DNA of 47,020 nt, taken from a virus. Taxonomy: Duplodnaviria; Heunggongvirae; Uroviricota; Caudoviricetes. The stretch lies in IMG/VR virus record IMGVR_UViG_646862327_000001; one strand, 5' to 3'. Under the pieces are notes generated by a model, which searched no databases, was not told the DNA's origin, and was given only the letters and a program-made list of their open reading frames with translations. Position numbers and translations under genes: made by a program. Positions 11,036 to 47,020 of this stretch are shown here, one piece after another. How positions within the stretch are numbered: the first letter of the stretch is position 1; every line of letters begins with the position of its first letter.

Positions 11036-12562
11036 ATGAAAAAAGCCATAGCATATATGCGATTTTCATCACCAGGTCAGATGTCTGGTGATTCATTAAA
11101 CCGCCAGAGAAGGCTTATTACTGAATGGCTAAAGGTAAATAGTGATTATTACCTTGATACCGTAACGTATGAAGATTTGGGGTTAAGCGCATTCAATGGA
11201 AAGCATGCACAATCAGGAGCTTTTTCGGAATTTTTAGATGCTATAGAACATGGTTACATATTGCCAGGGACTACATTGTTAGTTGAAAGTCTGGACAGAC
11301 TTTCAAGAGAAAAAGTCGGTGAAGCGATTGAGCGTCTGAAATTGATTTTGAATCACGGTATTGATGTTATAACTCTTTGCGATAATACAGTCTATAATAT
11401 AGACTCATTGAATGAGCCATATTCATTAATAAAAGCCATACTTATAGCACAAAGGGCAAATGAAGAAAGCGAGATAAAGTCAAGTCGGGTTAAATTATCA
11501 TGGAAGAAAAAACGGCAGGATGCACTGGAATCAGGCACGATTATGACGGCGTCTTGTCCGAGATGGCTCTCATTGGATGACAAAAGAACAGCTTTTATTC
11601 CAGACCCCGACAGGGTGAAAACGATTGAGCTAATTTTTAAACTCAGGATGGAAAGGCGATCATTGAATGCAATAGCTAAGTATTTAAATGATCATGCTGT
11701 AAAAAATTTTTCAGGAAAAGAAAGTGCATGGGGGCCTTCTGTAATTGAAAAATTATTAGCGAATAAAGCTCTGATAGGTATATGCGTACCTTCATATCGT
11801 GCAAGAGGGAAAGGGATAAGTGAAATCGCTGGCTATTATCCCAGAGTCATATCAGATGATTTGTTTTACGCTGTACAGGAAATTCGGTTGGCACCTTTTG
11901 GTATTAGCAATAGTAGCAAGAATCCTATGCTAATAAATCTACTTCGAACAGTTATGAAGTGTGAGGCTTGTGGTAATACCATGATTGTTCATGCGGTATC
12001 TGGACGTTTGCATGGCTATTATGTTTGTCCGATGAGAAGATTACATCGATGTGACAGGCCATCAATAAAAAGAGATTTGGTTGATTATAATATCATTAAT
12101 GAATTGCTTTTTAATTGTAGCAAAATTCAACCAGTTGAAAACAAGAAAGATGCTAATGAAACTTTAGAGTTAAAAATTATTGAGCTTCAGATGAAAATTA
12201 ATAATTTAATCGTTGCATTGTCTGTCGCGCCTGAAGTTACCGCTATAGCAGAGAAAATAAGACTATTAGATAAGGAATTACGAAGGGCTTCGGTATCATT
12301 AAAAACTTTGAAGAGTAAAGGGGTGAGTTCACTTGGTGATTTTCATGCTATTGATTTAACCAGTAAAAATGGGCGAGAGCTATGTCGTACACTTGCCTAT
12401 AAAATATTCGAAAAAATTATAATTAATACAGATAATAAAACCTGTGATATCTATTTTATGAATGGCATTGTTTTTAAACACTATCCTTTAATGAAAGTAA
12501 TATCCGCCCAGCAGGCGATAAGTACTCTTAAATATATGGTTGATGGTGAGGTTTATTTTTGA
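11036..12562 (+). CDS. ybcK: Large serine recombinase (YbcK-like, 508 aa)
   Basis: N-terminal resolvase/invertase catalytic motif (AIAYMRFSSPGQ...LLVESLDRLSR) followed by a long recombinase extension with Cys clusters; AT-rich gene after emrE as in DLP12. Confidence 0.85.
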   Translation: MKKAIAYMRFSSPGQMSGDSLNRQRRLITEWLKVNSDYYLDTVTYEDLGLSAFNGKHAQSGAFSEFLDAIEHGYILPGTTLLVESLDRLSREKVGEAIERLKLILNHGIDVITLCDNTVYNIDSLNEPYSLIKAILIAQRANEESEIKSSRVKLSWKKKRQDALESGTIMTASCPRWLSLDDKRTAFIPDPDRVKTIELIFKLRMERRSLNAIAKYLNDHAVKNFSGKESAWGPSVIEKLLANKALIGICVPSYRARGKGISEIAGYYPRVISDDLFYAVQEIRLAPFGISNSSKNPMLINLLRTVMKCEACGNTMIVHAVSGRLHGYYVCPMRRLHRCDRPSIKRDLVDYNIINELLFNCSKIQPVENKKDANETLELKIIELQMKINNLIVALSVAPEVTAIAEKIRLLDKELRRASVSLKTLKSKGVSSLGDFHAIDLTSKNGRELCRTLAYKIFEKIIINTDNKTCDIYFMNGIVFKHYPLMKVISAQQAISTLKYMVDGEVYF

Positions 12563-12911: not shown

Positions 12912-13955
12912 TTACAGGTCAGCGTTTGTTTTTTGTTGTTGGGTAGCGGTTTTTATGGGGGTTCCCAGGTTTTTAGTAAACCACTCAACAACTCTGTTTA
13001 TAATAATTGGCTGATACCATGTATTATCGCCATGCTCGGCCCCTTCTACCAGCACGTACTCAGCGTTATCACCGTTCTTCTTCAACATCCTGAATAGTTT
13101 GGCGCTTTGCTCAGGTGAAACCAGAGTGTCTTTGCTACCATGCATAATAAGAAATGGGGGTTTTACTCCTTTCATATGTCCGATTGGACTGGCGTTTAGC
13201 GCTTTTTCTTTTGACGCTGTGATGGGGGCTCCCGCAAAATTTCTGAATGCAGGGCCATTGATCATTAAGGCTTCGGTTACGGCAGGAGAGCGATGAACCT
13301 CCTGCACTGATTCAGGGAACCCCTCGCCAATATTCAACAAGTCAGAAATCCCATAAAGTGTGGCAACTGCCTGAACATCTGAGGATTGCTGAAGAAAGTC
13401 ACCTTTATCAAAGGTTTTGTCACCATTTGTAGTTCCCATCATCTGGGCAAGCCATCCACCGGCAGAGTCACCCAGAACTCCGATTCTTTGAGGATCAATC
13501 CCATAATTGCTGGCATGCTCTCTCAGGTAACGTATTGCAGCTTTTCCATCCTCAACTGGTGCTGGAAATGTATCAGGAATTGTTCTGTATTCTACAGCGG
13601 CCACAACAAAACCAGCTTCTGCCAGAGCCATTCTCATTTCAATAAATTTGTCATGTTCAGAAGACATGAATCCGCCGCCGGGATAATAAATAATGGCTGG
13701 TTTTAAATCATTTGTTCGCGGGACAAGAACTGACATGTGAAGCTGTCTGACAGAACGAGTTCCTTTTATCTGGGAATAAACAACATCACCAATGAGATCG
13801 ACCTGGTTTCTGGTCGGTGAAACACTAATGATATCTGCACCCGGGGTGTAACCAGGAAGATTAGTCTGGACAGGTGTTGCACAACTCCCGACCGACATGG
13901 CCATTGACATACCATACAATAGTGTTGCAGATGATAATATCTTGTTAATTTTCAT
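12912..13955 (-). CDS. Secreted alpha/beta-hydrolase (HSL-type esterase/lipase), probable lipoprotein
   Basis: 347 aa; N-terminal signal ending in a lipobox-like SVGSC; YYPGGGF oxyanion-hole motif, GDSAGG nucleophile elbow, downstream Asp/His (HGSKDT, AEHGD). Confidence 0.8.
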   Translation of the reverse strand: MKINKILSSATLLYGMSMAMSVGSCATPVQTNLPGYTPGADIISVSPTRNQVDLIGDVVYSQIKGTRSVRQLHMSVLVPRTNDLKPAIIYYPGGGFMSSEHDKFIEMRMALAEAGFVVAAVEYRTIPDTFPAPVEDGKAAIRYLREHASNYGIDPQRIGVLGDSAGGWLAQMMGTTNGDKTFDKGDFLQQSSDVQAVATLYGISDLLNIGEGFPESVQEVHRSPAVTEALMINGPAFRNFAGAPITASKEKALNASPIGHMKGVKPPFLIMHGSKDTLVSPEQSAKLFRMLKKNGDNAEYVLVEGAEHGDNTWYQPIIINRVVEWFTKNLGTPIKTATQQQKTNADL

Positions 13956-16464: not shown

Positions 16465-17547
16465 TTAGAACTGATAAACCAGACCTACAGCGACGATGTC
16501 GTCGGTATCAATACCAGCTGTTTTGGTAAACTTACTATCGTCAATTAAGTTGATTTTGTAATCAACAAAAGTGGACATGTTTTTATTAAAGTAGTAAGTA
16601 GCACCGACATCGACATACTTGACTAAGTCTCGGTCACCATGAACACCAAGGTCTTTACCTTTTGACTGAAGGTAAGCAACAGATGGTCGCAGACCGAAGT
16701 CAAACTGATATTGTGCTACTGCTTCAAAGTTTTGTGCTTTGTTTGCAATATGGTTATTACCAAAAACGGTCATATTCTGAGTTTCAGAATATGTGGTAGC
16801 CAGATAGATATTGTTCGCATCATATTTCAGGCCTGCAGCCCATACTTCCGCATTTTTGCCGGAGGCATTGAATTTGCTCTTACCATAGGCGACCTGACCG
16901 TCAGTGCGATCTGATTTAGCATAGGTTGCACCCACGCCGAATCCTTCATACTCATAAGTAGTGGAGAAACCGAAACCATCACCATTGACTTCAGTTACGT
17001 CAGTGCGGTCATTTTTACCCTGATACTGAGCAGCAAAGTTCAGGCCATCGACCAGACCAAAGAAGTCGTTGTTACGATAAGTTGCAACACCAGTAGTGCG
17101 ACCAGTCATGAACACATCTGTTTGGGTCCAGGTATCACCACCGAATTCTGGCAGGACGTCAGTCCACGCACCGATGTCGTATGCTACACCGTAGTTACGG
17201 CCGTAATCGATTGAGCCGTAATCACCAAATTTCAGGCCTGCAAATGCAAGACGGGTTTTGTCTTTGGAAGAACCTTGAGATTCAGCACGGTTGCCTTTGA
17301 ATTCATATTCCCACTGACCGAAACCAGTCAGTTGATCGTTGATTTGGGTTTCACCTTTGAAGCCAAGACGGGCATAAGTAGTATCACCATCATCTGCATC
17401 ATTAGAGGAGAAGTAGTGCTTGGCATTAACTTTCCCGTATAGATCCAGCTTGTTACTGTCTTTATTATAAATTTCAGCTGCCTGAGCAGACATCGCCATC
17501 AGTACTGATGCAGCTACAGCAGAAATTGCCACTGTTAATTTTTTCAT
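16465..17547 (-). CDS. nmpC: Outer-membrane general porin (NmpC/OmpD-like, OmpC/F family), intact
   Basis: 360 aa with signal peptide ([23 protein letters not shown]), porin beta-barrel signature and C-terminal ...VAVGLVYQF; antisense to the late operon between Q and S as in DLP12. Confidence 0.95.
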
Positions 17548-35798: not shown

Positions 35799-36152
35799 AT
35801 GGGTAAAGGCAGCAGTAAGGGGCATACCCCGCGCGAAGCGAAGGACAACCTGAAGTCCACGCAGTTGCTGAGTGTGATCGATGCCATCAGCGAAGGGCCG
35901 ATAGAAGGTCCGGTGGATGGATTAAAAAGCGTGCTGCTGAACAGTACACCGGTGCTGGACAGTGAGGGAAATACCAACATCTCCGGCGTCACGGTGGTGT
36001 TCCGGGCAGGTGAGCAGGAGCAGACACCGCCGGAGGGATTTGAATCCTCCGGTTCCGAGACGGTGCTGGGTACGGAAGTGAAATATGACACGCCGATCAC
36101 CCGCACCATTACGTCTGCAAACATCGACCGTCTGCGCTTTACCTTCGGTGTG
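35799..36152 (+). pseudogene. J: Tail tip/host-specificity protein J, 5' fragment (codons 1-118), interrupted by an IS element
   Basis: MGKGSSKGHTPREAKDNLKSTQLLSVIDAISEGPIEGPVDG... matches the lambda J N-terminus; reading frame is broken at 36152 by the IS and resumes in-frame at 38739. Confidence 0.9.
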
Positions 36153-36345
36153 TGCGTATTTTCATGAAAGGAGATCACTCAATAACTTCCATCGAGATCG
36201 GGTAATAACATTTGAACAGATCGCTGAATAACATCGATGGAGATCACTTTTGACTCATTTTGTTATTCAGTGATCTCCATCAATGTTATTGGAACTTCAC
36301 AGGTGTGTTGATCTGTATCTTTTGCCATTCCGGTAAAGGATACCT

Positions 36346-37887
36346 ATGCCAACAGTTCCAATTTCTATGAGAAAACTTAAAGAAATTCTTAGGCTTAAAT
36401 ACGGTGTTGGACTCAGCCATCGACAAATTGGTCGTAGTCTTGCAATCTCCCCTTCCGTTGTATCCAGATATGCTAATCGGGCGGCTCAACTTGGCATAAA
36501 GCAGTGGCCCTTACCTACAGGATGGGATGATACAAAACTAAAACATGCGTTCCTTCAGACCCAGGTTAAGATGAAGAAGCACTCTCTGCCTGACTGGGCT
36601 ACAGTACACCGGGAACTGCGTAATAAATGCGTGACGCTGCAGCTACTCTGGGAAGAATACTGTGAGCGTAATCCAGGCGGTTTTTACAGCTATAACCATT
36701 ACTGCCGGATGTACCGTGAATGGCTCAAAACCACTTCACCATCAATGCGTCAGGTACATAAAGCTGGCGAAAAACTTTTCGTTGATTACTGTGGACCTAC
36801 CGTTGGCGTTACCGACCCTGAGACCGGAGAAATAAGAACTGCTCAGGTCATCGTAGCTGTTCTCGGGGCATCAAGTTACACATGGGCAGAGGCCACCTGG
36901 TCTCAGCAGCTTGAAGACTGGGTGATGAGTCATGTTCGCTGCTTCCAGTGGTTGGGTGGCGTTCCTGAACTTGTTGTTCCGGACAATCTGAAAAGCGCCA
37001 CATCCAGGGCATGTAAGTATGATCCTGACGTTAACCCTACCTACCAGCAGATGCTTGAGCATTATAATGTCGCAGTTTTGCCTGCGCGGCCACGTAAACC
37101 GAAAGATAAAGCCAAAGCTGAAGTTGGCGTTCAGGTTGTTGAACGCTGGATCATGGCCCGAATCAGGCATGAGATCTTCTACAGCCTTGCATCGCTTAAT
37201 CAGCGCATTCGGGAGTTGCTGGAAAGACTGAATAACAAAATAATGCAGAAGTTGGGTTATTCACGTGCAGAACTCTTCATCCAGCTTGATAAACCCGCAC
37301 TGAAGCCTCTTCCTGAAGCCAGTTACAGTTACACCCTGGTGAAGAAAGTCAGAGTTCATGCCGATTACCACGTGGAAATCGACAAACATTACTACTCGGT
37401 TCCATGTTCGCTGTTAGGCCAGCAACTGGAAGCATGGATCTCCGGAGAACTGGTAAGACTCTTCAATCAGGGGCAGGAGGTTGCTGTGCACCCGCGCAAG
37501 CGTACTTATGGCTACAGTACCCGCAACGAGCACATGCCTGAAGCTCATCGACAGCATGCCACCTGGACGCCAGAGCGTCTTCTGGAATGGGCGGGGCACA
37601 TAGGCAGTGAAACTCATAGTTATGTGCTTCATATACTGAACTCTCGTCCACATCCGGAACAAAGCTATCGCTTCTGCCTTGGACTCCTGAACCTTCATAA
37701 AAAATACAGTAAAGCCAGACTTAATGCAGCATGTGCAAGAGCTCTGAAAACAAAGGTATGGCGTCTGTCAGGTATTAAATCGATCCTGGAAAAAGGTCTG
37801 GATAAACAACCTGTTCAGGATCCAAAACCAGATCTGTTATCCACGATGGAACACGAAAACGTACGCGGCAGTGAGTATTACCACTGA
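36346..37887 (+). CDS. istA: IS21-family transposase IstA (513 aa)
   Basis: N-terminal HTH (LSHRQIGRSLAISPSVVSRY) then DDE integrase-like core; followed by istB. Confidence 0.8.
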   Translation: MPTVPISMRKLKEILRLKYGVGLSHRQIGRSLAISPSVVSRYANRAAQLGIKQWPLPTGWDDTKLKHAFLQTQVKMKKHSLPDWATVHRELRNKCVTLQLLWEEYCERNPGGFYSYNHYCRMYREWLKTTSPSMRQVHKAGEKLFVDYCGPTVGVTDPETGEIRTAQVIVAVLGASSYTWAEATWSQQLEDWVMSHVRCFQWLGGVPELVVPDNLKSATSRACKYDPDVNPTYQQMLEHYNVAVLPARPRKPKDKAKAEVGVQVVERWIMARIRHEIFYSLASLNQRIRELLERLNNKIMQKLGYSRAELFIQLDKPALKPLPEASYSYTLVKKVRVHADYHVEIDKHYYSVPCSLLGQQLEAWISGELVRLFNQGQEVAVHPRKRTYGYSTRNEHMPEAHRQHATWTPERLLEWAGHIGSETHSYVLHILNSRPHPEQSYRFCLGLLNLHKKYSKARLNAACARALKTKVWRLSGIKSILEKGLDKQPVQDPKPDLLSTMEHENVRGSEYYH

Positions 37888-37898
37888 TACGGGATCCA

Positions 37899-38648
37899 AT
37901 GATGAATCATCTTTACGAACAACTGACCGCACTTAAACTCACCGGCTTCCGTGATGCGCTTAAAAAGCAACTTGCTCAACCGGGCACATACCAGGAGCTG
38001 GGCTTCGAAGAACGCCTGTCATTACTGACAGCAGAAGAACTAACCTGCCGTGAAAACAGGAAGGCAGAGCGTCTGATCAAACATGCACGGTTCAGACTTA
38101 ATGCTGAGTTATCAAAGCTGGATTATCGTAACAATAGAGGGCTGGACAGGGCCCTCATCCGTTCACTCAGTCAGGGAAACTGGTTAACCCTGAAACAAAA
38201 TATTTTACTGACCGGGGCCACCGGCAGCGGTAAAACGTTCCTGGCATGTGCACTTGGTCATAATGCCTGCCGACAGGGATACAAGGTCTACTATTATCGC
38301 CTTAAAGCGCTGATGGAACAGTGCTATCAGGGGCATGCTGATGGAAGATACAGCAAACTTTTGACCAGGCTGAATAATAGCGATCTGCTGCTTCTGGATG
38401 ACTGGGGGCTGGAACCTCTCTCATCAGAACAGCGTAGCGACCTGCTGGAAATAGTGGATCTGATGTACCAACGAGGCTCAATCATCGTAGTGAGCCAGTT
38501 GCCGGTGGAAAACTGGTACAAAATGATCGGAGACTCCACACATGCGGATGCCATCCTAGATCGACTGGTTCATGGCAGTATCAAGATCGAACTTAAAGGA
38601 GAATCAATGCGGAAAATACAATCTCCGTTGACCGAAGGAGATCAGTGA
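37899..38648 (+). CDS. istB: IS21-family ATP-binding helper IstB
   Basis: AAA+/DnaC-like with Walker A GATGSGKT and Walker B LLLLDDWG. Confidence 0.85.
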   Translation: MMNHLYEQLTALKLTGFRDALKKQLAQPGTYQELGFEERLSLLTAEELTCRENRKAERLIKHARFRLNAELSKLDYRNNRGLDRALIRSLSQGNWLTLKQNILLTGATGSGKTFLACALGHNACRQGYKVYYYRLKALMEQCYQGHADGRYSKLLTRLNNSDLLLLDDWGLEPLSSEQRSDLLEIVDLMYQRGSIIVVSQLPVENWYKMIGDSTHADAILDRLVHGSIKIELKGESMRKIQSPLTEGDQ

Positions 38649-38738
38649 AGGTAATTTAAAAACGGTTCTGTGAAAGTGACACGAACCGATCTCCATCGAT
38701 GTTACTCACCGATCTCCTTCACGGTAATACGCAGTGTG

Positions 38739-41700
38739 CAGGCACTGGTGGAAACCACTTCAAAGGGGGACCGTAATCCGTCGGAAGTCCGCCTGCTGGT
38801 TCAGATACAGCGTAACGGTGGCTGGGTGACGGAAAAAGACATAACCATTAAGGGCAAAACCACCTCGCAGTATCTGGCCTCGGTGGTGGTGGATAACCTG
38901 CCTCCGCGCCCGTTCAATATCCGGATGCGCAGGATGACACCGGACAGCACCACAGACCAGCTGCAGAACAAAACGCTCTGGTCGTCATACACCGAAATCA
39001 TCGATGTGAAACAGTGCTACCCGAACACGGCACTGGTCGGCGTGCAGGTGGACTCGGAACAGTTCGGCAGCCAGCAGGTGAGCCGTAATTATCATCTTCG
39101 CGGGCGCATTCTGCAGGTGCCGTCGAACTATAACCCGCAGACGCGGCAATACATCGGTATCTGGGACGGGACGTTTAAACCGGCATACAGCAACAACATG
39201 GCCTGGTGTCTGTGGGATATGCTGACCCACCCGCGCTACGGCATGGGTAAACGTCTTGGTGCGGCAGATGTGGATAAATGGGCGCTGTATGTCATCGGCC
39301 AGAATTGCGACCAGTCGGTGCCGGACGGTTTTGGCGGCACGGAGCCGCGCATCACCTGTAACGCTTACCTGACCACACAGCGCAAGGCGTGGGATGTGCT
39401 CAGTGATTTCTGCTCGGCGATGCGCTGTATGCCGGTATGGAACGGGCAGACGCTGACGTTCGTGCAGGACCGGCCATCGGATAAGGTGTGGACCTATAAC
39501 CGCAGTAATGTGGTGATGCCGGAAGATGGCGCGCCGTTCCGCTACAGCTTCAGCGCCCTGAAGGACCGTCATAATGCCGTTGAGGTGAACTGGATTGACC
39601 CGGATAACGGCTGGGAGACGGCGACAGAGCTTGTGGAGGACACGCGGGCCATTGCCCGTTACGGTCGTAATGTCACGAAGATGGACGCCTTTGGCTGTAC
39701 CAGCCGGGGGCAGGCACACCGAGCCGGGCTGTGGCTGATTAAAACGGAGCTGCTGGAAACGCAGACCGTGGACTTTAGCGTGGGTGCTGAAGGGCTTCGC
39801 CATGTACCGGGCGATGTCATTGAAATCTGCGATGATGACTATGCCGGTATCAGCACCGGCGGGCGCGTGCTGGCGGTGAACAGCCAGACCCGGACGCTGA
39901 CGCTCGACCGTGAAATCACGCTGCCATCCTCCGGCACCACGCTGATAAGCCTGGTTGACGGGCAGGGTAATCCGGTGAGCGTGGAGGTTCAGTCCGTCAC
40001 CGACGGCGTGAAGGTGAAAGTGAGCCGGGTTCCTGACGGCGTTGCCGAATACAGCGTGTGGGGGCTGAAGCTGCCGACGCTGCGCCAGCGCCTGTTCCGC
40101 TGTGTGAGTATCCGTGAGAATGACGACGGTACGTATGCCATCACCGCCGTGCAGCATGTACCGGCAAAAGAGGCCATCGTGGATAACGGGGCGCACTTTG
40201 ACGGCGACCAGAGCGGAACGGTAAACGGTGTCACGCCGCCAGCAGTACAGCACCTGACCGCAGAAGTCACCGCAGACAGCGGGGAATACCAGGTGCTGGC
40301 GCGCTGGGATACGCCGAAGGTGGTGAAGGGGGTGAGCTTTATGCTTCGCCTGACCGTGGCAGCGGATGACGGCAGTGAGCGGCTGGTCAGCACGGCCCGG
40401 ACGACGGAAACCACATACCGCTTCACGCAACTGGCGCTGGGAAACTACAGGCTGACAGTCCGGGCGGCAAATGCCTGGGGGCAGCAGGGCGATCCGGCAT
40501 CGGTATCGTTCCGTATTGCCGCACCGGCAGCGCCGTCGCGGATTGAGCTGACGCCGGGCTATTTTCAGATCACCGCCACGCCGCATCTTGCCGTTTATGA
40601 TCCGACGGTACAGTTTGAGTTCTGGTTCTCGGAAAAGCGGGTTGCGGATATCAGGCAGGTTGAAACTACAGCCCGCTATCTTGGCACGGCGCTGTACTGG
40701 ATAGCTGCCAGTATCAATATCAAGCCGGGCCATGATTATTATTTTTATATCCGCAGTGTGAATACTGTTGGCAAATCGGCATTCGTGGAGGCTGTCGGTC
40801 GGGCGAGCGATGATGCGGAAGGTTACCTGGATTTTTTCAAAGGCCAGATAACCGAATCCCATCTCGGCAAGGAGCTGCTGGAAAAAGTCGAGCTGACGGA
40901 GGATAACGCCAGCAAACTGGAGGAGTTCTCGAAAGAGTGGAAAGACGCCAACGATAAATGGAATGCCATGTGGGGTGTCAAAATTGAGCAGACCGAAGAC
41001 GGCAAACATTATGTCGCGGGGCTTGGCCTCAGCATGGAGGATACAGAGGAAGGCAAACTGAGCCAGTTCCTGGTTGCCGCTAACCGTATCGCGTTTATTG
41101 ACCCGGCAAACGGGAATGAAACGCCGATGTTTGTGGCGCAGGGCAACCAGATATTCATGAACGAAGTGTTCCTGAAGTATCTGACGGCTCCCACCATTAC
41201 CAGCGGCGGCAATCCGCCGGTATTTTCCCTGACACCGGACGGGCGGCTGACGGCGAAAAATGCCGATATCAGCGGTAACGTGAATGCGAACTCCGGGACG
41301 CTCAATAATGTCACGATTAACCAGAACTGTCGGATTATGGGAAAACTGTCTGCCAACCAGATTGAAGGTGATATTGTCAAAACGGTGGGAAAAGCCTTTC
41401 CGAGAAATGGCAGTTATGCCAGCGGTACAATAACGGTCACTGTGTACGATGACCAGGCTTTTGACCGTCAGATAGTAATCCCACCCGTTCTGTTTCGCGG
41501 TGGTAAGCATGAAAACTTCAACAGCAACAACCAACAGTCATACTGGTATTCAACCTGTAAGCTGCAGGTACTGAAGAACGGACAGGAAATCTTTCAGCAA
41601 CCCGCGACGGATGTCAGCAGGGTATTTTCATCAGTCATTGATATGCCTGCCGGACACGGCCATGTCACCCTGACTTTCAATGTTTCTTCATATGGTGCTA

Positions 41701-41783
41701 ATAACTGGACGCCAACGACCAGTATCAGCGACCTTCTTGTTGTTGTGATGAAGAAATCTACAGCCGGTATCAGTATCAGTTGA
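38739..41783 (+). pseudogene. J: Tail tip/host-specificity protein J, 3' fragment (central fibronectin-like region + C-terminal receptor-binding region)
   Basis: Resumes exactly at ...[29 protein letters not shown]... collinear with lambda J; the ORF-track N-terminal extension (38670-38738) is IS-derived sequence. Confidence 0.9.
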
Positions 41784-41802
41784 ATTTTATAACCCAGATA
41801 CG

Positions 41803-41830
41803 GGTGCCAGAAATGGCGCCTTTTTTATTT
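41803..41830 (+). terminator. Rho-independent terminator after J
   Basis: GGTGCC-agaaat-GGCGCC followed by TTTTTTATTT. Confidence 0.55.
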
Positions 41831-41841
41831 GTGGAGTGAAT

Positions 41842-43770
41842 ATGGCAGTACAGATTTCAGGCGTGCTGAAAGACGGTGCAGGAAAACCGATACAGAACTG
41901 CACCATTCAGCTCAAAGCAAAACGTAACAGCACCACGGTTGTGGTGAACACGGTGGCCTCAGAAAATCCGGATGAAGCCGGACGTTACAGCATGGATGTC
42001 GAGTATGGCCAGTACAGCGTTATCCTGCTGGTTGAAGGTTTTCCGCCTTCACATGCCGGGACCATCACCGTGTATGAGGATTCTAAGCCGGGGACGCTGA
42101 ATGATTTTCTGGGGGCCATGACGGAAGAGGATGTCATGCCGGAGGCATTGCGTCGTTTTGAGGTAATGGTGGAGGATGTGGCACGCAACGCTGAAGCCGC
42201 CTCTCAGAGCGCAGCGGCAGCAAAGAAATCAGAAACAGCAGCGGCATCGTCCAGGAACGCGGCGAAAACATCAGAGACGAATGCAGGTAACAGCGCGAAA
42301 GCGGCAGCTTCTTCAAAAACAGCCGCACAAAACGCAGCAACAGCGGCAGAACGTTCAGAGACAAATGCCCGTGCGTCAGAAGAAGCCTCCGCAGACAGTG
42401 AAGAGGCTTCCCGCCGTAATGCAGAGTCAGCCGCTGAAAATGCCGGAGTCGCCACCACAAAAGCGCGGGAGGCTGCAGCAGACGCAACAAAGGCCGGGCA
42501 GAAAAAGGATGAGGCTCTGTCGGCAGCGACACGAGCTGAAAAGGCGGCAGACCGCGCAGAAGCCGCAGCGGAAGTGACTGCAGAGCCCTATGCGAATATA
42601 GTGCCGCCGCTGCCTGATGTGTGGATACCGTTTAACGATTCACTGGATATGATTGCGGGTTTTTCTCCGGGCTATAAAAAAATAGCTATTGGTGACGATG
42701 TGGTTCAGGTCGCCAGTGATAAACAGGTTAATTTCAGTCGCGCATCAACGGCAACATATATCAACAAATCTGGCGAACTGAAAACGGCGGAAATTAATGA
42801 GCCGCGATTTGAGTGTGATGGCCTGCTTATTGAGGGACAAAGAACGAACTACATGCTCAATTCGGAAAGTCCAGCCAGCTGGGGGAAGTCATCAAACATG
42901 GATGTGCCCGAAACTGGGACGGATAGTTTTGGTTTTACTTATGGAAAGTTTGTCTGCAACGATTCTCTGGTTGGGCAAACTTCGGCTATTAATATGGCAT
43001 CAATTGCTGCAACAAAGTCAGTTGATGTCTCAGGCGATAACAAGTACGTGACAACCTCATGCCGTTTTAAAACAGAACGACAGGTAAGGTTACGTATACG
43101 GTTTGATAAGTATGATGGTAGTGCAACAACTTTTCTTGGCGATGCGTACATTGATACGCAAACGCTTGAAATTAATATGACAGGTGGTGCTGCCGGCAGA
43201 ATTACGGCACGAGTCAGGAAGGATAAGACCACGGGCTGGATTTTTGCAGAGGCAACGATTCAGGCAATTGATGGTGAGTTAAAAATAGGCTCTCAGATAC
43301 AGTATTCTCCTGAGCAGGGTGGGGCAACAGTATCTGGTGACTATATTTATCTTGCCACCCCACAAGTAGAGAATGGGCCGTGTGTATCATCATTTATTAT
43401 TTCAGGAGGCAGCGCAACGACAAGAGCCAGTGATTTGGTTAGTATCCCCACCAGAAATAATCTTTATAAGTTACCATTTACTTTTTTACTTGAGATTCAT
43501 AAAAACTGGGATATTGCACCAAACGCCGCACCCCGCGTGTGGGATATAGCAGCCAATACCGGGCAATCAGCAATTGCAGCAATCAACAGAGGTAGTGGTA
43601 AGTTATATATGAGTCTGTCAAACCCTTCAGGCTCGTATGTTAATAGCGCAGCGACAGATGTATTTGCAGAGAAAACCACATTTGGATGTATTGCAAAAGC
43701 TGATGGTCACTTTCATGTGGTGACAAATGGTAAAGCGGTTAATGAAGTTTATTGTGAATATAATGGGTAA
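41842..43770 (+). pseudogene. stf: Side tail fibre protein Stf, 3'-truncated by IS66-family insertion
   Basis: ATG 41842 after GGAG; N-terminus MAVQISGVLKDGAGKPIQNCTIQLKAKRNSTTVVVNTVASENPDEAGRYSMDVEYGQYSVIL... as lambda Stf; stop codon TAA (43768-43770) is created at the IS left end; original last 44 codons lie at 46307-46439. Confidence 0.8.
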
Positions 43771-43851
43771 GCGTAAACTGACCGCCGTATGTAGCCATCA
43801 GACGAGAATTGGTAACTTAGACGCCCATCTGATATAGACGGACATCTAAGT

Positions 43852-44277
43852 ATGGAATTACAGGACTGGCGAAAAGAACCTCGTAAAAACTATTCGAATG
43901 AATTCAAACTTCGTATGGTGGAACTGGCATCACAACCTGGAGCTTGTGTTGCACAGATTGCACGTGAAAATGGCGTCAATGATAATGTTATTTTCAAATG
44001 GCTCAGGCTCTGGCAGAACGAAGGGCGTGTTTCGCGGCGTCTTCCGGTAACGACCTCTTCTGACACTGGCGTTGAATTATTACCTGTAGAAATAACGCCG
44101 GATGAGCAGAAAGAACCTGTGGCGGCCATTGCGCCGTCTTTATCCACTTCCACTCAGACCAGAGTCAGTGCCAGTTCCTGCAAGGTGGAATTCCGTCACG
44201 GTAACATGACGCTGGAAAATCCATCGCCAGAGCTGCTCACAGTGTTGATCCGTGAACTGACCGGGAGGGGAAGATGA
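43852..44277 (+). CDS. IS66-family accessory protein (orf1/TnpA)
   Basis: 141 aa with N-terminal HTH (ACVAQIARENGVNDNVIFKWL); first ORF of the IS66 triad. Confidence 0.8.
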   Translation: MELQDWRKEPRKNYSNEFKLRMVELASQPGACVAQIARENGVNDNVIFKWLRLWQNEGRVSRRLPVTTSSDTGVELLPVEITPDEQKEPVAAIAPSLSTSTQTRVSASSCKVEFRHGNMTLENPSPELLTVLIRELTGRGR

Positions 44278-44624
44278 TCTCACTCCCATCAGGTACCCGT
44301 ATCTGGCTCGTTGCCGGCGTTACCGATATGCGTAAATCCTTCAACGGACTGGGAGAACAGGTACAACATGTGCTGAATGATAATCCCTTCTCCGGTCACC
44401 TGTTTATCTTCCGTGGCCGACGGGGTGACACCGTCAAAATTCTTTGGGCTGATGCTGATGGTCTGTGCCTGTTCACCAAACGCCTGGAGGAAGGCCAGTT
44501 TATCTGGCCTGCGGTACGTGACGGCAAGGTATCCATTACCCGCTCGCAACTGGCAATGCTCCTCGATAAGCTGGACTGGCGTCAGCCAAAAACATCCAGC
44601 CGTAACTCACTGACAATGTTGTAA
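44274..44624 (+). CDS. IS66-family accessory protein (orf2/TnpB)
   Basis: 116 aa, 4-bp overlap with orf1; conserved IS66 orf2 pattern (...RKSFNGLGEQVQHVL...GHLFIFRGRRGDTVKILW...). Confidence 0.8.
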   Translation: MISLPSGTRIWLVAGVTDMRKSFNGLGEQVQHVLNDNPFSGHLFIFRGRRGDTVKILWADADGLCLFTKRLEEGQFIWPAVRDGKVSITRSQLAMLLDKLDWRQPKTSSRNSLTML

Positions 44625-44654
44625 AAAACTCCTGACCGCATTATAAAAACGGTC

Positions 44655-46268
44655 ATGAGTCAGAAATACCTCATTCGCATCGCAGAGCTGGAAAGGTTGC
44701 TCTCTGAGCAGGCTGAAGCCCTCCGTCAGAAAGACCAGCAACTGAGTCTGGTTGAAGAGACGGAAGCCTTCCTGCGCTCTGCACTGACACGTGCCGAAGA
44801 AAAGATCGAAGAAGATGAACGGGAAATAGAACATCTGCGGGCTCAGATAGAAAAACTGCGCCGGATGCTGTTCGGTACCCGTTCTGAAAAACTGCGTCGT
44901 GAAGTTGAACTGGCTGAGGCTCTGCTGAAACAACGTGAACAGGACAGCGATCGTTACAGTGGGCGGGAAGACGATCCTCAGGTTCCCCGCCAGTTGCGAC
45001 AGTCGCGCCATCGTCGTCCGTTACCGGCACACCTTCCCCGTGAAATACACCGCCTGGAGCCAGAAGAAAGCTGTTGCCCGGAGTGTGGCGGTGAGCTGGA
45101 TTATCTGGGGGAAGTCAGCGCTGAACAGCTGGAACTGGTGAGCAGTGCCCTGAAAGTGATCCGCACAGAACGGGTAAAAAAAGCCTGTACAAAATGTGAC
45201 TGTATTGTTGAAGCACCGGCGCCGTCCCGCCCGATAGAGCGTGGTATCGCGGGCCCCGGATTACTTGCCCGCGTGTTAACGGGAAAATACTGCGAACATC
45301 TGCCACTGTATCGTCAGAGTGAAATCTTTGCCCGCCAGGGTGTCGAACTGAGCCGGGCCTTACTCTCCAACTGGGTTGACGCGTGCTGCCAGTTAATGAC
45401 ACCGGTGAATGATGCCCTGTACCGTTATGTAATGAATACCCGCAAGGTTCACACTGATGACACACCGGTAAAGGTACTGGCACCGGGTCAGAAAAAGGCG
45501 AAAACAGGGCGTATCTGGACGTATGTCCGGGATGATCGCAATGTGGGTTCGTCATCTCCTCCAGCGGTCTGGTTCGCGTACTCGCCGAACCGGCAGGGGA
45601 AACACCCGGAGCAACACCTCCGCCCCTTCCGGGGTATCCTGCAGGCGGATGCGTTCACAGGTTACGACAGGTTGTTCAGTGCAGAACGTGAAGGTGGTGC
45701 ACTGACAGAAGTTGCGTGCTGGGCCCATGCCCGGCGAAAAATCCACGATGTATACATCAGCAGCAAAAGTGCGACGGCAGAAGAAGCCCTGAAGCGAATC
45801 AGTGAACTGTACGCCATCGAGGATGAAATACGGGGATTACCGGAGTCAGAGCGTCTTGCCGTCAGGCAGCAGCGAAGCAAAGTGTTACTGACGTCGCTGC
45901 ATGAATGGATGGTGGAGAAGAATGGTACGCTGTCGAAAAAATCCAGACTGGGCGAAGCGTTCAGCTATGTACTGAATCAGTGGGATGCCCTCTGTTATTA
46001 CAGTGATGACGGTCTGGCGGAGGCGGATAATAATGCTGCGGAAAGAGCGCTTCGTGCAGTCTGTCTCGGAAAGAAAAACTTTATGTTCTTTGGCAGCGAT
46101 CACGGCGGCGAGCGTGGAGCACTGTTGTACGGGCTGATCGGCACCTGCCGTCTGAACGGTATCGATCCGGAAGCGTATCTGCGCCATATCCTGAGCGTAC
46201 TGCCGGAATGGCCTTCCAACCGAGTTGACGAACTCCTGCCATGGAACGTAGTACTCACCAATAAATAA
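44655..46268 (+). CDS. IS66-family transposase (orf3/TnpC, 537 aa)
   Basis: N-terminal coiled-coil/leucine-zipper, CxxC zinc-finger (CCPECGGE...CTKCDC), DDE-type core. Confidence 0.85.
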   Translation: MSQKYLIRIAELERLLSEQAEALRQKDQQLSLVEETEAFLRSALTRAEEKIEEDEREIEHLRAQIEKLRRMLFGTRSEKLRREVELAEALLKQREQDSDRYSGREDDPQVPRQLRQSRHRRPLPAHLPREIHRLEPEESCCPECGGELDYLGEVSAEQLELVSSALKVIRTERVKKACTKCDCIVEAPAPSRPIERGIAGPGLLARVLTGKYCEHLPLYRQSEIFARQGVELSRALLSNWVDACCQLMTPVNDALYRYVMNTRKVHTDDTPVKVLAPGQKKAKTGRIWTYVRDDRNVGSSSPPAVWFAYSPNRQGKHPEQHLRPFRGILQADAFTGYDRLFSAEREGGALTEVACWAHARRKIHDVYISSKSATAEEALKRISELYAIEDEIRGLPESERLAVRQQRSKVLLTSLHEWMVEKNGTLSKKSRLGEAFSYVLNQWDALCYYSDDGLAEADNNAAERALRAVCLGKKNFMFFGSDHGGERGALLYGLIGTCRLNGIDPEAYLRHILSVLPEWPSNRVDELLPWNVVLTNK

Positions 46269-46306
46269 GCGTCAATACGGTGCTCCGTTGACGCTTACTA
46301 TAATGG

Positions 46307-46439
46307 CGTGACCGCTGATAAAAATATCCGATTTGGAGGGCAGACGAATACTGGAGAACGACATCTGTTTGGCCATATTCGCAATTTCCGCATATGGCAT
46401 AAAGAATTAAATGACAGGCAATTAAAAGAGGTCGTATGA
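46307..46439 (+). other. stf: Displaced 3' end of stf (last 44 codons, LamG-like C-terminal motif)
   Basis: Joining 43766 to 46307 restores the frame: ...EYNG|VTADKNIRFGGQTNTGERHLFGHIRNFRIWHKELNDRQLKEVV*, ending at TGA 46437-46439, which overlaps the next ATG. Confidence 0.7.
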
Positions 46440-46714
46440 AAGATTTAACTTTGAAGTTTCATGACAAACTGCAGTTTAAGGCCTTCCTGTCATCTCTTGG
46501 CTGGGCGGAAGATGAAGACCTCCAGAATAAACTGTTAGTTGATGAAATTGGTTTCACCTACACAGAAACAGGGGTAACAGAAGAGGGAGAACCTGTCTGT
46601 ATCCGGAATGATGGTTATTTTGTCAACATTCGCATTCTTGATGACTTGTTTGATGTTTCTGTATTCTCTGATTATGTCGTGGAGCTGGAAACACCGCTTC
46701 GGGAATGGAGCTGA
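46436..46714 (+). CDS. Hypothetical acidic protein (92 aa) translationally coupled to the original stf 3' end
   Basis: ATG overlaps the reconstructed stf stop (ATGA); position expected for a tail-fibre assembly/chaperone gene but shorter than lambda Tfa and not recognised. Confidence 0.5.
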   Translation: MKDLTLKFHDKLQFKAFLSSLGWAEDEDLQNKLLVDEIGFTYTETGVTEEGEPVCIRNDGYFVNIRILDDLFDVSVFSDYVVELETPLREWS

Positions 46715-46726
46715 AAGGAGGAAATA

Positions 46727-47020
46727 ATGGATATAAGCCCCTTACTTCATGCACTTTGTGCTGTGGCTGCGCAGATACTGGTTGGTCTTTTTACCGGAAA
46801 CTGGGCTTACGGAGCGATAGCCGGTTGTACGTTCTTCATTGCGCGTGAACATACCCAGGCAGAATATCGCTGGATTGAAATGTTCGGGCATGGCAAGCGA
46901 ATGAATATGCCGTGGTGGGGCGGTTTTGATCCGCGTGCTTGGGATGTGGCAAGCCTGATGGATTTTGCTGTGCCGGTGGTGGCGTGTCTGCTGGTCTGGC
47001 TGTTGGTTAATCGTGGGTGA
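46727..47020 (+). CDS. Hypothetical membrane protein (at least 97 aa; runs to window end without a stop)
   Basis: RBS AGGAGG upstream of ATG 46727; two hydrophobic segments (LLHALCAVAAQILVGLF..., DFAVPVVACLLVWLLV). Confidence 0.4.
   Translation: MDISPLLHALCAVAAQILVGLFTGNWAYGAIAGCTFFIAREHTQAEYRWIEMFGHGKRMNMPWWGGFDPRAWDVASLMDFAVPVVACLLVWLLVNRG

Follow-up and report, generated by a model that had tools for sequence, protein, structure and literature searches.

We analysed a 47,020-nucleotide stretch of viral DNA (IMG/VR record IMGVR_UViG_646862327_000001, Caudoviricetes), referred to below, over its whole length, as the window. It corresponds to a lambdoid prophage, of the type of phages 4A7 and Lambda_4C10 (genus Bievrevirus), and its tail-fibre region is a close relative of that of the classical phage 21. 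The present work concerns stf, the side tail fibre gene of this region, which is interrupted by ISEc23, an insertion sequence (IS) of the IS66 family. It also concerns the receptor-binding tip encoded by the intact gene and the small gene that normally overlaps the stf stop codon and encodes an acidic protein of 92 amino acids (aa).

An ISEc23 copy within the side tail fibre gene

The stf gene lies directly downstream of J, the latter ending at 41783 and the former starting at 41842, and the features of the locus are gathered in Table 1. The open reading frame (ORF) of stf is closed by a TAA codon (43768-43770) located entirely within the left inverted repeat of the element, in agreement with the sequence-only reading which had attributed this stop to the left end of an IS66-family element. 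The same reading placed the end of the element correctly but divided the junction as GGG|TAAGCG, which has to be corrected to G|GTAAGCG, the third base of GGG, the last codon of the truncated gene, being supplied by the IS. The two 24-nt terminal repeats (GTAAGCGTAAACTGACCGCCGTAT / ATACGGTGCTCCGTTGACGCTTAC) are imperfect, with 83% complementarity, and start with GTAAGCG. They are bordered by the expected 8-bp target-site duplication, TATAATGG. A duplication of 8 bp is usual for the IS66 family and, once the inverted repeats fix the ends of the element, the chance of the flanking 8-mers matching is 4^-8, about 1.5e-5. The tnpA-tnpB-tnpC gene set, the GTAAGCG inverted repeats, the 8-bp duplication and the existence of an empty site are all features of an IS66-family member. 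Many E. coli copies are 100% identical over the 2,532 bp, and the name ISEc23 is taken from the RefSeq annotation of these identical copies (“IS66-like element ISEc23 family”). The copy of the window is a standard one, with no difference in its three ORFs, its repeats, the size of its duplication or its nucleotide sequence (100% identity).

Table 1. Coordinates of the features in the window
Feature	Position	Strand	Details and evidence
Truncated stf ORF, 642 aa	41842..43770	+	ORF list; IS-derived stop TAA
Target-site duplication, left copy	43759..43766		TATAATGG, 8 bp
ISEc23 (IS66 family), 2,532 bp	43767..46298	+	Inverted repeats; full-length identical E. coli copies
Left inverted repeat of ISEc23	43767-43790		24 nt
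IS66 tnpA, 141 aa	43852..44277	+	Helix-turn-helix accessory protein; Pfam HTH_Tnp_1, E 5e-12; RefSeq annotation of identical copies
IS66 tnpB, 116 aa	44274..44624	+	IS66 Orf2-like accessory protein; Pfam TnpB_IS66, E 1e-36
IS66 tnpC, 537 aa	44655..46268	+	DDE transposase; Pfam DDE_Tnp_IS66 (E 9e-98), zf-IS66, LZ_Tnp_IS66, DDE_Tnp_IS66_C
Right inverted repeat of ISEc23	46275-46298		24 nt
Target-site duplication, right copy	46299..46306		TATAATGG, 8 bp
Orphaned stf 3' end	46307..46439	+	Last base of codon 642, 43 sense codons (VTADKNIRFGGQTNTGERHLFGHIRNFRIWHKELNDRQLKEVV), TGA
92-aa acidic protein, pI 4.2	46436..46714	+	PHROG 1361 (unknown function); ORF list, synteny, co-divergence
97-aa hydrophobic protein	46727..47020	+	PHROG 1443; putative membrane protein in phage 21 annotation
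J gene fragments	35799-36167 and 38670-41783		
OmpC-like porin	16465-17547	-	Cargo
Large serine-recombinase-like	11036-12562	+	Cargo
Alpha/beta-hydrolase (esterase)	12912-13955	-	Cargo

Deletion in silico of 43767-46306 gives a 685-aa ORF which runs on through ...GERHLFGHIRNFRIWHKELNDRQLKEVV, ends in ...HIRNFRIWHKELNDRQLKEVV and terminates at a TGA (46437-46439). The restoration of the frame was correctly foreseen, the number of regained sense codons being 43 and not 44, a figure reached only when the stop is included. The restored TGA overlaps the ATG (46436) of the next ORF as ATGA (46436-46439), again as proposed. Uninterrupted homologues, designated beforehand as the test of this reconstruction, continue at their 3' end exactly as predicted: after excision, 1,895 nt align with E. 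coli A13 and CMZE120 at 100% identity, and the restored Stf matches the continuous A13 ORF at 685/685 residues and the Stf of phage 21 at 675/686. The truncated Stf is itself identical (642/642) to that of phage Lambda_4C10. Among 5,426 complete E. coli genomes, the uninterrupted form of stf is found in 453 and the stf-ISEc23 junction in 123.

Two further observations were made on the gene and its surroundings. At the A13 locus (L001, 5257-7314; also in L002), the RefSeq/PGAP annotation splits the continuous 685-aa stf ORF into two overlapping features, one a pseudogene (“prophage tail fiber N-terminal domain”), the other a coding sequence with an internal start (“phage head spike fiber domain-containing protein”), an annotation artefact which hides the full-length fibre. 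Between J and stf, a GC-rich hairpin followed by a T-run is present at 41802-41821, the equivalent site of phage 21 being annotated as a terminator, and side-fibre expression may depend on read-through at this place. A scan for promoters and terminators over 41700-47020 returned sites no more numerous than in shuffled sequence and therefore allows no statement on an outward IS promoter driving the 92-aa gene.

The receptor-binding tip and the consequence of its truncation

The Stf protein is composed of a lambda-type N-terminal domain (residues 1-131 match Pfam phage_tail_N, PF08400, E 5e-69), an Ala-rich coiled-coil shaft and a receptor-binding module cut 43 aa short. This tip module, corresponding to the C-terminal ~440 residues of the restored protein, defines a family of 2,886 representative proteins (E ≤ 0.001) and, in those matched over their full length, the family match reaches within a few residues of the protein C-terminus. 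A PLPDVW.P.NDSL motif opens the module, and G.RHLFGHIRN.RIWH..LTD.Q closes it. Its order is a short adaptor starting at PLPDVWIPFNDSL, a domain resembling the head spike fibre of gene transfer agents (GTA) and a terminal LamG-like domain. The same module is grafted after a P2 gpH-type N-terminus (P0088), after a PF03406-type N-terminus (P0120, for which an exact look-up found no contig) and after an unrelated siphovirus shaft; the intact tip is thus a mobile C-terminal cassette of about 430-440 aa. The strongly conserved PLPDVW(I/A)P(L/F)NDSL motif, at residues ~255-267 of the restored Stf, constitutes its N-terminal border and is a likely recombination or graft point at the junction with lambda-Stf, P2-gpH, PF03406-type and other shafts.

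The lectin-like C-terminus expected from the sequence alone was recovered, with the amendment that the tip contains two domains and not one. For the first of them, residues 329-529 match the NCBIfam model GTA_spike_fiber (NF048003) with a score of 55.7 bits, the cut-off being 36. In a comparison of the family profile with PDB sequences, the head spike fibre Rcc01080 of RcGTA (6TB9 chain F3) was retrieved with an E value of 1.7e-42, and gp45 of Pseudomonas phage E217 and gp46 of Pa193 with ~1e-16. Their adaptor and first beta-sandwich are clearly homologous in sequence to the tip, although the match of Rcc01080 (325 aa) stops short of the terminal LamG-like domain of Stf. The position of these proteins on the particle also differs, since the RcGTA spike is carried on the capsid vertex and the PB1-like proteins (E217 gp45, Pa193 gp46) on the baseplate, whereas Stf is a trimeric coiled-coil side fibre. 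For the second domain, the last ~140 profile positions match pentraxins, the lectin-like Hc domain of botulinum toxin (BoNT) and AbnA domain 4. Pfam Laminin_G_3 (PF13385) matches residues 561-680 (E 3.5e-5), and the close relatives P0053 and P0088 carry a precomputed PF13385 match. An AlphaFold2 model of the module (pLDDT 93.5, pTM 0.89), submitted to Foldseek, retrieved CBM40 and pentraxins, and the terminal domain has the jelly-roll beta-sandwich of the ConA-like superfamily. The LamG-like nature of the restored C-terminus is thereby supported at the level of the fold, the sequence identity of the tip to this lectin/glucanase superfamily (LamG/Laminin_G_3, pentraxins, BoNT HcN, CBM40) being 7-18%. 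The head fibre of RcGTA binds capsule polysaccharide (PMC7296036). Because of this homologue, together with the fold of the tip, from both of which carbohydrate binding can be inferred, a surface polysaccharide or another surface glycan is the most likely ligand.

The orphaned 3' end of stf codes for the last two beta-strands and the terminal helix of the LamG-like domain. In the coordinates of the model, the IS removes residues 397-439, with strands 402-405 and 418-426 and the helix. The lost segment includes the module residues H419, R424 and W426, nearly invariant across the family, and the HIRNFRIWH motif, which is the most conserved part of the family. As the last two strands, the helix and this motif are gone, the truncated terminal domain is very probably unable to fold, and the side fibre is probably left without receptor-binding function. 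The whole series of events can be proposed with high confidence: ISEc23 transposed into codon 642 of a phage-21-type stf, making the 8-bp duplication; the protein ends 43 residues early, with loss of the two last strands and the terminal helix of the ConA/LamG-like beta-sandwich; the terminal domain of the tip would remain unfolded and receptor binding by the side fibre would be lost. The same insertion splits stf from the 92-aa gene normally overlapping its stop. Such a lesion is tolerated given that side fibres are accessory and that phages with exactly this allele are inducible and plaque-forming.

The interrupted arrangement is indeed not restricted to the window and was retrieved in six phage records, which represent five phages and originate from two laboratories or more. 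It is 100% identical over 4,421 nt in Lambda_4C10, 4A7, 1W and 3W, and 98.5% identical in D2. Over its whole length, integrase gene to 97-aa ORF, the window matches the Bievrevirus phages 1W, 3W, 4A7 and Lambda_4C10 at 100% identity except for an ISEc12-like insertion in J, a gene which is intact in Lambda_4C10 (LR595861), 4A7, 1W and 3W. Lambda_4C10 and 4A7 are reported to be inducible prophages producing plaque-forming units on E. coli C (bioRxiv 10.64898/2026.05.26.727859). Since phages with the identical allele form plaques, a truncated stf is compatible with infectivity, as expected of an accessory fibre. The Stf of phage D2 (P0087) has a clearly different N-terminal third, while its C-terminal part is the same and ends at the identical IS-derived stop. 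Part of the fibre gene has therefore been swapped between phages by recombination with the IS being kept.

Comparison with known phages places the lesion in its original context. Phage 21 (OL657228.1; CPT_21_22, CPT_21_23, CPT_21_24) displays the intact gene order, with stf (686 aa), the 92-aa ORF, the 97-aa membrane protein and sitDCBA, the 92-aa and 97-aa genes being in the same order in the window. The stf of the window differs from that of phage 21 by the ISEc23 interruption and by one Ala codon fewer, and their backbones belong to different genera, Jouyvirus for phage 21 and Bievrevirus of the 4A7/4C10 type for the window. In Lambda_4C10 and 4A7, sitDCBA lies just past the point where the window ends, and related genomes carry this prophage at icd, with sitABCD just beyond the same end. 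Lambda Stf shares with the window the PF08400 N-terminus, the position after J, the status of accessory, non-essential fibre and, downstream, a small gene linked with the tip. Its C-terminal part is unrelated, binding OmpC and requiring Tfa (Caudo_TAP), whereas the tip of the window is GTA-spike-like plus LamG-like with an unrelated partner (for lambda, 10.1101/2022.09.30.509847 and general background).

Several points weigh against the explanation proposed above. The GTA-spike-like domain is intact in the truncated Stf and could still bind, and the plaque assays cited above are no comparison of phages with and without the IS. Moreover, the Laminin_G_3 score (24.4 bits) is under the gathering threshold of 27.6, and because of this score below the curated cut-off, the membership of the LamG family rests on fold and profile evidence. 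The junction could also have been suspected to result from a mis-assembly collapsing an IS into the fibre gene, IS66-family copies being abundant in E. coli, where a genome can have up to 47 matching places, and a known cause of mis-joins. The perfect target duplication and the exact empty site of other genomes argue against it, and this explanation, whose probability is negligible, was rejected, the identical junction being shared by 123 independently closed genomes and by the phage records of at least two laboratories. A different explanation would be that the truncated allele is a selected variant, the shortened Stf keeping or altering receptor binding, or the loss of the side fibres being advantageous in itself. 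The latter case would have a parallel in lambda PaPa, a laboratory lineage with a stf frameshift, and natural lineages can lose side fibres too. The recurrence of one junction in so many complete genomes and phage records would fit with selection, as would the D2 recombinant, in which the IS-bearing cassette or the N-terminal part was exchanged without the lesion being purged, and the lack of decay (100% identity) of the stf 3' remnant and of the 92-aa gene. However, a recent neutral lesion passed on clonally and by the phages accounts for these counts equally well. Moreover, the lost segment comprises the most conserved residues of the family and two core strands of the sandwich, making a folded terminal domain unlikely, and uninterrupted alleles are ~3.7 times commoner (453 versus 123 genomes). 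Selection of the truncated allele is consequently judged unlikely, and the loss of the lectin-like end through a tolerated ISEc23 insertion is preferred.

A conserved 92-aa partner of the fibre tip

The gene separated from stf by the IS was predicted to be conserved with stf-like genes, which was borne out in every lineage examined, where it is present after fibres carrying this tip. Homologues start 0-3 nt past the fibre coding sequence in 79/80 IMG/VR loci, the sole exception ending at a contig edge. In the pooled loci, defined by a full-length match to the module, the partner is present in all 89 of those with a module at least 40% identical to that of the window, with an ATGA or TAATG overlap throughout. 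The identity of the 92-aa protein follows that of the tip in these pooled loci (Spearman 0.77). At a tip identity of 60-80%, the mean identity is 54% for the 92-aa protein, whereas the 97-aa membrane protein stays at 92% and is displaced by 1.0-1.4 kb.

The association extends to several phage architectures. The partner is also found after Lom and Stf in other lambda-like prophages. In a P2-like myovirus prophage, the cassette stands in place of the gpH tip and is followed by the partner, then by a 74-aa Caudo_TAP remnant. In an unrelated siphovirus, a 704-aa fibre shares only its C-terminal 437 residues (54% identity) and has a partner homologue directly after it. The scan of IMG/VR with the family alignment returned only relatives of at least 70% identity, and distant relatives came from a second alignment searched against GTDB genomes. 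Among the latter, the fibres found in Leclercia, Silvania, Buttiauxella and Aeromonas, which share 30-56% identity along their entire length with the query, a distant family member, have downstream an acidic homologue of 93-104 aa with 25-34% identity. It adjoins the fibre gene in six of these eight distant loci, one small gene being intercalated in two Aeromonas loci (L100, 4218-4496; L105, 4185-4415). This intervening ORF is Cys-rich, with a hydrophobic tail and a CCxxHDxxYG motif reminiscent of phospholipase A2.

On these sequence comparisons, the 92-aa protein appears as a conserved partner of this fibre-tip module. Its family counts at least 982 sequence clusters by profile search, every one named “hypothetical”. 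When the 92-aa protein, the 97-aa protein and 27 family members were compared with Pfam and NCBIfam at E ≤ 1, nothing above noise was obtained. The 92-aa protein has no signal peptide or hydrophobic segment, no similarity in sequence or fold to a known chaperone family (Caudo_TAP/Tfa/gpG, T4 gp38 and similar) and no structural neighbour. No Tfa chaperone of the Caudo_TAP family follows stf, and phage 21 has no further gene before sitD. The 92-aa gene occupies the place held by the Tfa/gpG chaperone in lambda and P2 and, as looked for in a chaperone-type gene, it directly follows the fibre gene, is inherited together with the tip and diverges in step with it.

Because the gene travels and co-diverges with the cassette, overlaps its stop and sits where Tfa/gpG sits, the most likely role by analogy, with about an even chance, is that of a tip-specific assembly chaperone or tip-bound accessory. 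The broader proposal that PHROG 1361 would be an unrecognised family of chaperones or accessories for GTA-spike-like plus LamG-like fibres, replacing Tfa/gpG in Enterobacterales and Aeromonas, falls slightly below even probability. It has to be weighed against a somewhat less probable but serious alternative, in which the protein would not be a folding chaperone but a T4 gp38-like structural adhesin or cap at the tip, an intracellular inhibitor masking the lectin, or an unrelated small gene held in place by the overlap. The absence of similarity to Caudo_TAP/Tfa or to any Pfam/NCBIfam family would fit with this alternative, and so would a divergence faster than that of the tip (54% versus 60-80%), as is often the case of receptor-contacting or partner-specific proteins. 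On the other hand, strict adjacency, with the start codon overlapping the fibre stop, recurs in phages of four architectures and in several genera and designates a functional pair and not a hitch-hiker, the position is that of tfa/gpG in a phage 21 lacking any other chaperone gene, and the absence of signal peptide and hydrophobic segment also argues against the alternative. A chaperone, a tip-bound accessory and a masking protein are indistinguishable in silico.

Other genes of the window and significance of the finding

The window bears a second insertion of a different status. The J gene is cut at 36153-38733 by a 2,581-bp ISEc12-like element of the IS21 family (istA, istB). The element shares 98-99% identity with ISEc12 copies and has produced a duplication of 5 bp, GTGTG; once it is taken out, a J of 1,132 aa is recovered. 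None of the 5,426 complete E. coli genomes contains this junction, nor do the otherwise identical phage records. The insertion is therefore private, recent and inactivating: since the essential J is cut and the junction is absent elsewhere, the window is a freshly inactivated prophage. The 97-aa protein, described with a signal sequence and two transmembrane segments in the phage 21 annotation, is 90-95% identical whatever the fibre tip and, in many prophages, lies 1.0-1.4 kb further off. Its gene is a conserved small membrane gene in its own right, beside the sit cargo, with no co-variation with the tip. The window also carries genes for an OmpC-like porin, a serine-recombinase-like protein and an alpha/beta-hydrolase (esterase), all three being present in the identical phage records.

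The interruption of stf represents a textbook IS66-family insertion in a non-essential phage gene. Because the interrupted and intact alleles both sit in public annotated records, it is considered as already known, the residual novelty being limited to the 92-aa family. Literature searches retrieved nothing on ISEc23 and tail fibres, on the phage 21 side fibre with sitABCD or on the phage accession numbers, nothing on the accessions and the PHROG identifier of the 92-aa protein, and only unrelated papers on ISEc23 and prophages.

To a large extent, these results confirm a routine biology in which prophages are eroded by IS elements and, side tail fibres being dispensable, such lesions persist even in plaque-forming phages. 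They imply that a truncated product is what is annotated as Stf in 4A7, Lambda_4C10, 1W, 3W, D2 and the 123 complete E. coli genomes, and that the restored 685-aa sequence is preferable for host-range inference from these records. They also delimit a receptor-binding cassette which is portable and comprises the fibre tip together with its 92-aa partner, PLPDVWIPFNDSL being the clear N-terminal junction motif. In the design of chimeric side fibres for phage-based delivery, the tip and the 92-aa gene would probably need to be transferred together.

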